The notes under the pieces were generated by a model. That model saw nothing but the letters and a program-made list of their open reading frames with translations, did no database searches and had not been told where the DNA came from. A DNA stretch of 62,631 nucleotides, counting the filler, from Collodictyon triciliatum (Eukaryota), in the NCBI GenBank assembly GCA_043381765.1. It is 5 parts of 5 records of this genome, joined end to end, with 100 filler letters (N's around TTAATTAATTAA, not from the genome) between each part and the next. Parts side by side here need not be neighbours in the genome. Positions count along the whole stretch, not along the records: positions 18,961 to 27,435 come from JBHJMP010000456.1; 4 more parts are not named here. One strand, 5' to 3'. The position numbers and the translations under genes are program-made. Below are positions 19,723 to 22,054 of the stretch, in pieces; positions within the stretch are counted from its first letter, which is position 1, and every line of letters starts with the position of its first letter.

Positions 19723-22054
19723 TCATGTGCTTGTGTAGAGCGTGCGTGTGGAAAGCGCGTTGCTCCAGCCCGGTGTGTGGTTGGACGGAAGCGACCCGGC
19801 ATTGGGGAAGTAAATCCAGTCGCCAACTTCAAAAAGCGGCAACACAATCTGCGGACGTGCTGCTTCCATTTCTTTTTGAAATAGAAAGAATAATTGTGTT
19901 AGAAAAGCAAAATAATAAAACATGTTTCATGTCGATTAGGTCATCGAGATAAATATGAGATCGATTGTGAAATCAAGTAGAAAGGTGGCAAAATGGCATT
20001 TATGAAAATGATTCGGGCTATCTCTTGGCATTTCGAGAGGGAATCAATCAATCAATCAATCAATCAATATGATAAAATCTATTTTATTTGGATTTTTTTC
20101 TCTATTTGTTTCACAGTATTTTTTTTTTCGAGCGAGTGACAAACATCTATATTTTTTCCATCTACTCTCTCTCTCTTTGAATTTGTGTGCATATAAACAA
20201 CAGTTATATATCAAACCTTCACTGTTGGGCCCTGTAAATGCAGATGGATACTTGGCCGCATTCTCAGCCGGAGGCGCTTCTTTCACTGGGATGGGCGCCA
20301 TGTAAACGTTGTCGAAGGCCAGCCTGTTGATTGGGCCACAGATTTCATGGTTGATGTGATAGACATAACCGGCAGATTCTTGTGGAGCTTTGCTGTCTTC
20401 CTTGGCTTCGCCATCTTAATAAATAAATGAAACAATCGTTTGTTGATATTGGGTGAATCAATCCAGTATTTTCATATAATTGCGATTTTATTATATTAAA
20501 GTATTAAGCACTTAGGAAGAAATTAAAAAAAATTGACTTTTGAAAAAAAATATATATGCTCCATTGCCGATCAGTGAAGGATACATGAGAAACCAACTCA
20601 TGCAACAAAGAAATATATATTTGCGATGTTGAGGGAATATTTTCGAATTATAAGACGCTTTGATTCATACTTGTGACCTGTGTCTTGACTGAGTGAGCAA
20701 GTTTACGTGCAAATATGTTCGCTACGAGGATGCTGCACGAAGAAGTAAGAAACTGGCCTGCTTCAGCGATGATACGGACGTCGACTGGGAAGAGCTCCTC
20801 AATTTTACGATTAATCGGTTGTACAAGAGATTCCAGGGAGGCCTTGCTAGCTCCAATTCCTGTTACAAACAAATAAAAATAGTTGAATACATTAAAGCAG
20901 GTTCAGATATGGGGAACTGTCGATATCAACATATATATTCAAATAGGGGTTATTACTTCTTTTTTTTTATCTTACAATCTAGCATCGAATAAAGGAAAAA
21001 AAATCTTACAATCTAGCATAATGCAGGCGTATTGGCTTTAAGTTCATAATTTTGTGAATGCGATTAAAATAACCTGGGAAAATACTTCCAATGTCAATCG
21101 TGCTCATTTTGATACCCATAGAATCAGCAACAGAGAAAATAGCCGCAGCAGATTCCAATCCATCTATATACGCCTGCGCATTAGCAGTTCCCGATTTGCT
21201 TGGAACATCGAAGCTAATTAAATATTGAGTGAATGAATGTATATATTGCATTTCTGAGATATCCAAAATATCTCCGGAACTCGTGTCCTCGACCGGATTT
21301 TTTTTTCAAAAGAAAATGTAGTTTTGCGAATAACGATATACATTTCATCATCATGAGATAAATCTAACCTAACTCCAATAACATGAAGTCCTAAGCGAAG
21401 CGCACAACGGAGAATACTGTGACAGTTTGTGGGTGAAACTCCGTACCTGCGAACTGAACTTGTTTCCACCTCGCTTGTATTGGCAGGCAGGGATATATGC
21501 ATCATAAGCTCTGCGTCGGGGTGGTGAATAGCGATCTTCTGAAGCTCTCCTTCGCTATCGAATGTGAGCATATCGACAGCCAACTTCCTGGTGGACTTTA
21601 TCTGACTTGGAGTATTGCAAGGATTGGAGAAAAGAATCTTGCTAGATGGAATACCTTCCGCAAGAACCTATTAGAATAAACAAATAAATGTGTAATTTTG
21701 ACCGTAACATAGGTTTTTTTTAAAAATAAATGATGGAAAGAAGGGAAGTACTGAAATGACGCAGCAAGCAAAAATACCGTGTCAATTTCGGACTGGGTGA
21801 AACATTCGAAATGGCAACCGAATCGATCCAGAAGCTTCAGTATGGCTGGTGTCGAGTTGTGTCGGACGGCTAATATATATTTTATTAAAAAAAAAAATTA
21901 GGAAATTAGGTAATTGAGAAAATTAAATATTGAAGATTATAATAGCTTCTCTAGATACACGAAGAATATTTAAACACAAAACCATAAAATGGCTGAACTT
22001 GTGGGAGCTTCTGAATCCACTCAATGTACTTGTTGTACAGTATTCCAAGATTCA
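19723..22054 (-). CDS. Ornithine decarboxylase-like (fold type III) domain lacking catalytic residues; probably the C-terminal half of an AdoMetDC fusion
   Basis: GT-AG exons in ODC order: NLGILYNKYIEWIQKLPQVQPFYA|VRHNSTPAILKLLDRFGCHFECFTQSEI, MLTFDSEGELQKIAIHHPDAELMMHI, RRYGVS, FDVPS, IDIGSIFPG, IIAEAGQF, YVYHINHEICGPIN, FTGPNSE, VGDWIYFPNAGS...*. The first visible exon begins at an AG acceptor with no start codon. Confidence 0.88.

Follow-up and report, generated by a model that had tools for sequence, protein, structure and literature searches.

Polyamine synthesis is controlled at ornithine decarboxylase (ODC) and S-adenosylmethionine decarboxylase (AdoMetDC) in unusual ways, through antizyme, antizyme inhibitor, prozyme and, in Plasmodium, the fusion of both enzymes. 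ODC itself is an obligate head-to-tail dimer. Two polypeptides associate in the bifunctional AdoMetDC/ODC of Plasmodium, and the halves modulate each other's activity (PMC3253432). The prozyme of trypanosomatids is a dead protein of the polyamine pathway that controls AdoMetDC (PMC5201418, PMC6221367). Here we analyse a locus of Collodictyon triciliatum within a 62,631-nt stretch of DNA (hereafter the window, along which all positions are counted), whose minus-strand segment 22054-19723 encodes an ODC-like domain. The first-pass annotation had taken this domain to be a pseudoenzyme comparable to antizyme inhibitors. We find that it very probably forms the C-terminal half of a fusion-type gene with an intact-looking AdoMetDC at its N-terminus, and that most of the residues critical for ODC have been replaced.

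Results

The ODC-like segment splices from seven exons into 378 sense codons followed by TGA, with no internal stop, and scripted splicing gave GT..AG boundaries for all six introns. Exon 3 alone matches the PLP-binding (pyridoxal 5'-phosphate-binding) domain of Orn/Arg decarboxylases, Pfam PF02784, at 5.8e-16 (59 bits, cut-off 23.4), and exons 2, 4 and 5 give weaker matches to successive portions of the same profile. When exon 3 was used in a HMMER scan over 1.84 billion representatives, 835 matches were obtained, with P0001 at the top (1.1e-25, 57% identity at residues 526-622), a protein of 843 aa derived from a transcript; a word-indexed search for longer proteins with the same exon yielded 65 candidates, none significant. 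The C-terminal sheet domain, PF00278, was matched weakly by a single exon, exon 7 (E=0.14), and not by exon 6; both exons align to the C-terminal domain of P0001 with 31-35% identity. The ODC-like half is predicted to keep the two-domain ODC fold.

P0001 is a single open reading frame that carries PF01536, the AdoMetDC family, in addition to PF02784 and PF00278. In the window, PF01536 is matched upstream of the ODC-like segment and on the same strand, at 1.9e-45 (26240-27100) and 4e-36 (25503-25997). A five-exon AdoMetDC model starting from an ATG encodes 433 residues in frame, and its final exon encodes the N-terminal segment of an ODC before it ends at an assembly gap. When P0001 is aligned to the DNA by tblastn, each exon of the two halves is matched, with 65-70% identity across the AdoMetDC exons and 56% declining to 31% along the ODC-like exons. 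The alignment of the final AdoMetDC-model exon (the hinge exon) stops at P0001 residue 463 and that of ODC-like exon 1 resumes at 469, so that the hinge exon and the ODC-like exons appear to be consecutive parts of one protein. Thus, 19723-22054 is very probably not a stand-alone gene but the predicted C-terminal half of a minus-strand AdoMetDC/ODC-type gene of about 26965-19723 that crosses two gaps.

The AdoMetDC half retains the FEGxEK, LSESS, KTCGTT, PCGYS and TIHITPE motifs when aligned to human AdoMetDC, including the structure 1jl0. Since the self-processing site and the catalytic residues are retained, this half is presumably active.

For the ODC-like half the picture is quite different. 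Residues are numbered by a vertebrate ODC taken from the search results, P0106, whose motifs lie at the expected positions. The 20 residues most critical for ODC are K69, D88, E94, R154, K169, G171, H197, S200, G235-237, E274, R277, D332, C360, D361, D364, G387, Y389 and F397 (PMC5518511). The C. triciliatum domain retains seven (E94, G171, S200, G235, E274, D332 and G387), and the other 13 are changed: K69R, D88E, R154H, K169R, H197D, G236S, G237I, R277Q, C360S, D361E, D364E, Y389L and F397W. By comparison, 15 of the 20 are retained in AZIN1 (P0017, identity checked against the Protein Data Bank) and 17 in P0001. From the set that serves PLP and the Schiff base (K69, D88, R154, H197, G235-237, E274, R277 and Y389), just G235 and E274 are left, D233 being retained as well, and both members of the active-site pair contributed by the partner subunit, Cys360 and Asp361, have been replaced.

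The nine motif changes reported by the first-pass annotation are all present (PFYAVRHN, FECFT, RYG, FDVPS, DIGSIFPG, EAGQF, NHEICGPIN, GPNSE and GSLP), with the Schiff-base Lys69 turned to Arg by the codon CGA at 21864-21862; its assertions of an intact frame with intact splice sites and of a systematic loss of PLP and catalytic residues are likewise borne out by the counts above. With the Schiff-base lysine, the phosphate loop, R277, Y389 and C360 all gone, a working PLP-dependent decarboxylase is no longer plausible. Judged by its residues, the ODC-like domain cannot be a PLP-dependent ornithine decarboxylase, a conclusion that leans on established ODC enzymology (PMC3253432).

A domain that has lost so much might simply be decaying. 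Its exons have a GC content of 0.39-0.56 versus 0.19-0.30 in introns, as in the AdoMetDC half, and GC at third codon positions is 0.49 versus 0.28 in introns. We defined conserved columns on 57 canonical ODCs, those with 19 or all 20 critical residues, out of 77 full-length ODC domains found. At columns conserved to at least 90%, the ODC-like domain retains 6/19 critical and 29/45 other residues (Fisher p=0.027), and at least 80% conservation gives 7/20 and 54/79, respectively (p=0.0094). When subjected to the same test, P0001 showed no contrast (17/20 versus 66/79, p=1). Many of the lost "other" columns, which include C70, G199, P275, D320, G321, Y323, T359 and N398, lie beside the active site, so the division into critical and other columns is conservative if anything. 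Decay after loss of function should hit both classes of column equally, and the unequal retention therefore speaks against neutral decay. It also agrees with the earlier assertion that structural residues are kept, at 64-68% of the other conserved columns.

In a neutral simulation run 1000 times, with substitutions only and no indels and hence lenient, evolution until 13/20 marked residues had changed introduced a mean of 9.5 stops, and none of the 1000 runs stayed stop-free. When the simulation was halted at 6/20 changed residues, the mean was 4.5 stops with 25/1000 runs stop-free; at 3/20 it was 2.1 stops with 173/1000. Taken with the intact frame and splicing, the GC profile and the column retention, these results make neutral decay of the ODC-like domain unlikely, and the first-pass annotation's rejection of a pseudogene is upheld. 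The correlation of relative synonymous codon usage between the two halves was uninformative (r=0.24, with 0.29 for an out-of-frame control).

The domain has not been held tightly either. Between the C. triciliatum gene and P0001, the Poisson-corrected divergence of the ODC half is 2.13 times that of the AdoMetDC half. Five pairs of fusions whose ODC halves are canonical give ratios of 0.65-0.98, and pairs of dead fusions mostly 1.5-2.6, with 6.35 for the closest such pair. In quick trees the terminal branches leading to C. triciliatum and to P0001 measure 0.42 versus 0.051 for AdoMetDC and 1.1 versus 0.31 for ODC. The lineage is fast overall, and its ODC half is relaxed but not free-running.

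Searches seeded by the exons of this gene, which are not a census, returned 28 database proteins that combine AdoMetDC with an ODC-like or long C-terminal part; P0260 and P0269 are truncated. All 20 critical residues are present in nine of the 28; P0121 and P0001 have 17/20, and 15 have no more than 11/20. For P0024 (17/20) and P0097 (18/20) the remainder consists just of gaps in incomplete sequences. Among the 15 degenerate fusions, K69 is replaced or missing in 11. A word-indexed search for longer proteins with AdoMetDC exon 1 placed P0001 first at 70% identity and the next proteins at 50-56%, the nearest named relatives being red algae (55-56%). These next relatives include a protein of Porphyridium purpureum (947 aa), annotated solely as AdoMetDC proenzyme, and a Rhodochaete transcript.

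P0151 and P0156 (Porphyridium), P0152 (Rhodochaete), P0157 and P0160 are 780-1055 aa long, and their C-terminal halves are scarcely or not at all seen as ODC by Pfam. For the two Porphyridium proteins no Pfam ODC match appeared even at E 0.01, and their placement relies on forced alignment; the C-terminal 290 residues of P0151 nonetheless match the ODC-like half of the Rhodochaete protein at 3e-11 by BLASTP, and that half in turn matches PF02784 at 3.1e-06. A six-member clade (P0185, P0195, P0197, P0237, P0247 and P0188) has its losses on the PLP side, with K69R in most members, the GGG loop turned to D-T-E, E274R and R277K; C360 and D361 are kept in 6/6, and D364, G387 and F397 each in five or six. 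This pattern is unlike that of the C. triciliatum domain. Dead domains can evidently be long-lived, both in the Porphyridium-Rhodochaete clade and in the six-member clade, where they are 42-73% identical to one another. Two tandem ODC domains are predicted in each of P0002, P0005 and P0006 (672-1170 aa), through real duplication or fusion of gene models.

In the AdoMetDC tree (49 rows, 341 columns), C. triciliatum and P0001 are sisters (SH-aLRT, the Shimodaira-Hasegawa-like approximate likelihood ratio test, 99), and the degenerate P0154 comes next (97). Most of the remaining dead-domain proteins belong to a seven-member clade (99) or to a red-algal clade (99), and P0260 is unplaced. The ODC tree (35 rows, 418 columns) again joins C. 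triciliatum with P0001 (100) and AZIN1 with vertebrate ODC (100). Since the lysine, the glycine loop, R277, C360, D361 and Y389 are still in place in P0001, the C. triciliatum domain lost them on its own. Common to both proteins are H197D, which is thus not specific to the lineage, and an altered D88 (D88Q in P0001), which suggests that relaxation started before the two split. The ODC half of P0001 (about residues 470-843) is near-canonical except for D88Q, H197D and S200F, and diverges faster than its AdoMetDC half; P0001 may represent a partly impaired intermediate stage. By these residue patterns and trees, the inactivation in C. triciliatum is apparently independent of the other dead fusions and of antizyme inhibitors.

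The gene model runs on the minus strand as follows. AdoMetDC exon 1 (26965-26477) starts with the ATG at 26965 and carries FEGxEK, the LSESS self-processing site and KTCGTT, at 70% identity to P0001, and accounts for the PF01536 match of 1.9e-45; its intron has a GC donor, GCAAGT (26471-26476), a GC-AG type demanded by the frame and by the match to P0001. Exon 2 (26211-26074) is in frame and 66% identical to P0001 residues 167-213. Exon 3 (25898-25506), with PCGYS and TIHITPE, accounts for the PF01536 match of 4e-36 and was aligned to the human AdoMetDC alpha chain. Exon 4 (25428-25325) encodes the C-terminal end of the AdoMetDC fold, aligns to P0001 at about 335-370 and ends at a predicted donor, GTGCGG. 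In frame with it, the hinge exon (25195-25021) encodes a short hinge and the start of the ODC fold until truncated at 25020 by a gap of 451 N (24570-25020) that lies inside the gene. A contig between this gap and the next one (22287-24569) contains minus-strand pieces of a dynein heavy chain gene, from its 3' end (Dynein_C, 3.2e-11, at 23166-23483; a weak AAA_lid_11, E=0.039, at 24197-24427) that stand outside the AdoMetDC/ODC-like gene. Since a complete dynein gene would be impossible in that position, the contig is probably mis-scaffolded or intronic. The second gap, of 100 N (22187-22286), is flanked by CTTT/CCTT microsatellites, and a (CTTT)n/(CCTT)n microsatellite and this gap lie directly upstream of 22054.

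ODC-like exon 1 (22054-21983) encodes a stretch that includes NLGILYNKY and PFY, with 56% identity to P0001 residues 469-495; its acceptor, tttag at 22055, is a candidate, and the 5' limit at 22054 is accordingly provisional. Exon 2 (21869-21778) contains AVRHN and FECFT. The TIM-barrel core is encoded by exon 3 (21667-21369), 57% identical to P0001 and the site of R154H and K169R. Exon 4 (21213-21074) carries FDVPS, with H197D, and DIGSIFPG, in which the glycine loop is gone; its PF02784 match (E=0.00041) lies below the family cut-off. IIAEAGQF in exon 5 (20859-20671) retains E274 next to R277Q. Exon 6 (20414-20217), without a Pfam match by itself, includes NHEICGPIN and GPNSE (C360S, D361E) and retains D332. 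Exon 7 (19871-19723) retains VGDW, carries GSLP (Y389L) and F397W, and closes with the TGA at 19725-19723.

The window as a whole is AT-rich and eukaryotic in type; its introns are short and bounded by GT..AG, microsatellites abound, and N runs occur 19 times. Most N gaps are bordered by long purine/pyrimidine microsatellites, of (CTTT)n, of (CCTT)n or rich in AAG/GAA (22080-22440, 26240-26460, 27100-27700 and 18560-18900), which may explain the fragmented assembly around the gene. Elsewhere in the window we noted an exon of the ribosomal protein S9 family (17919-18647, minus strand), outside the JBHJMP010000456.1 part that carries the ODC-like gene, and a uS7/S5 gene with a 325-codon open frame (58494-59468, minus strand) that is at most 86% identical to eukaryotic S5 proteins.

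Discussion

We favour, with moderate confidence, the interpretation that a single AdoMetDC/ODC-type gene encodes a live-looking AdoMetDC whose dead ODC domain is kept as a cis-linked scaffold or regulator. The domain would then be under relaxed but real purifying selection because of its service to the attached AdoMetDC, most likely as an ODC-type dimerising scaffold, as an allosteric or stability module, or as both. We infer such a role from three precedents: ODC dimerises, the domains of the Plasmodium enzyme cross-talk, and a dead paralogue controls AdoMetDC in trypanosomatids. The cell would need to obtain its putrescine through another gene or by uptake.

A broader proposition, which we regard as possible though doubtful, is that dead ODCs fused to live AdoMetDCs form a recurrent class of cis-acting pseudoenzyme regulators, each a 'built-in prozyme', which originated several times, out of bifunctional AdoMetDC/ODC genes, in red algae and several protist lineages. 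Such domains would control the dimerisation, processing or activity of AdoMetDC, and the remnant pocket, in which E274 and D332 are retained, might still sense ornithine or putrescine. The C. triciliatum gene would represent a comparatively young independent origin, its sister lineage being still near-canonical.

Several observations weigh against a scaffold or regulator retained in cis. Some of the residues named as relevant to the dimer are altered (K169R, R277Q, D364E and Y389L), and both dimerisation by the ODC-like domain and its effect on AdoMetDC are putative, drawn by analogy. Unfused AdoMetDCs of about 440-455 aa from Cyanidiococcus and relatives (P0172, P0170 and P0155) sit within the red-algal clade of dead fusions; their nesting suggests secondary loss of the ODC-like half, so that the domain can be dispensable. 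At columns conserved to at least 95%, retention of critical (6/19) and other residues (11/18) does not differ significantly (Fisher p=0.10). A metagenome scan for DNA of close relatives, which would have allowed the ratio of non-synonymous to synonymous substitutions to be estimated, returned one locus, L001, a chance match of 20 residues, and the trees are quick searches with SH-aLRT as their sole support measure. That the gene is expressed, that its exons are spliced as modelled and that AdoMetDC reads on into ODC are all predictions. The gene is broken up by two runs of N and by a dynein contig that looks foreign, the junction itself falls in an N gap, and two separate genes would also be possible given an ATG inside the hinge exon.

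Four explanations compete with ours. The most serious, although we consider it unlikely, is that the ODC half has no function at all and that its frame, splicing and foldability are kept just to spare the essential AdoMetDC encoded by the same mRNA; indeed, the open frame might serve no purpose beyond protecting that enzyme from nonsense-mediated decay or misfolding. The roughly twofold faster evolution of the ODC-like domain, the Cyanidiales relatives that do entirely without it, and a retention contrast of no more than moderate significance, with p between 0.009 and 0.10 according to the threshold, would all fit. Yet a functionless tail could tolerate clean truncation, through a stop in the last exons or the loss of exons, and truncation would be expected, whereas all seven exons persist. 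Nor would such a tail readily account for the survival of dead domains across deep splits, as between Porphyridium and Rhodochaete or within the six-member clade, or for the retention of about two-thirds of the structural columns.

Far less probable is a stand-alone ODC-like pseudoenzyme gene lying beside an AdoMetDC gene, either because translation starts at the hinge-exon ATG or because the scaffold was joined wrongly. That ATG, within 25195-25021, is in frame, the unspliced frame of AdoMetDC exon 4 runs to a stop in the intron, and the scaffold has two gaps and a misplaced-looking contig. However, the sister protein P0001 is one 843-aa open reading frame, the predicted splice preserves the frame, two genes would be spaced by just about 100 bases, and the same fusion occurs in 28 database proteins.

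We give slightly less credence still to an antizyme-inhibitor-like decoy, a dead fold that binds antizyme or another ODC regulator and so shields a separate active ODC. The domain is a dead ODC homologue, and the best match of its exon 3 among solved structures is AZIN1 (3e-16 and 1.5e-15), versus about 1e-12 to 4e-12 for ODCs. The key antizyme-binding residues of human ODC are Q119, A124, N125, Q129, E136, V137 and M140 (PMC5518511). Just two of these seven, Q119 and E136, are retained here; P0001 has the identical pattern, the domain does not descend from the AZIN lineage, and it belongs to an AdoMetDC fusion, not to a free protein. The comparison with antizyme inhibitors made in the first-pass annotation therefore stands in part: the origin is independent, AZIN1 grouping with vertebrate ODC and the C. 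triciliatum domain with P0001, but the mechanism does not carry over. Least probable of all is that the domain is still enzymatic but handles its cofactor or its chemistry differently: E274, D332, E94, D233 and G235 are retained, but substitutions have removed the Schiff-base lysine, two of three loop glycines, R277, Y389, H197 and C360, and we know of no member of this fold that works without them.

The retained cis-acting scaffold or regulator remains our preferred explanation. It brings together two known kinds of protein, bifunctional AdoMetDC/ODCs and dead ODC homologues, the C. triciliatum gene being an apparently independent example. Green et al. 2011 reportedly mention, in their abstract, an AdoMetDC-ODC fusion from Micromonas. 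No description of AdoMetDC fused to a catalytically dead ODC was found in the full-text literature searched, which does not extend to subscription journals, or in passages of PMC12803844, PMC6356823 and PMC3253432; the full-text literature likewise yielded no paper on the degenerate Porphyridium and Rhodochaete proteins. If our interpretation is correct, ODC folds have lost their chemistry repeatedly, in different lineages, and have yet remained welded to a working AdoMetDC over long times; this would be a further device in polyamine control, and a natural experiment on the non-catalytic role of the ODC half in the bifunctional enzyme. Annotation is also affected, since such proteins are labelled as plain AdoMetDC or as bifunctional, which would mislead reconstruction of the putrescine pathway.

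How, then, does this gene compare with the known systems? The database dead fusions share its architecture and the loss of critical residues, but they belong to other lineages and carry other substitutions. AZIN1 and AZIN2 are likewise catalytically dead ODC homologues that retain the fold, AZIN1 with more than twice as many critical residues; unlike the present domain, which is fused to AdoMetDC, they stem from a duplication of their own within vertebrate ODC and act as free proteins that bind antizyme. The bifunctional enzyme of Plasmodium and the prozyme of trypanosomatids are closer functional analogies. As in P. falciparum, a single polypeptide is predicted with AdoMetDC at its N-terminus, a hinge and an ODC fold at its C-terminus, a likeness that is one of architecture. 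Both active sites work in the Plasmodium enzyme, however, whereas the C. triciliatum gene, rich in introns, encodes a destroyed ODC site and a very short hinge. The prozyme, for its part, is a paralogue of AdoMetDC that acts in trans as a heterodimer, whereas in C. triciliatum a dead homologue of ODC would act in cis, and the activation of AdoMetDC is putative.

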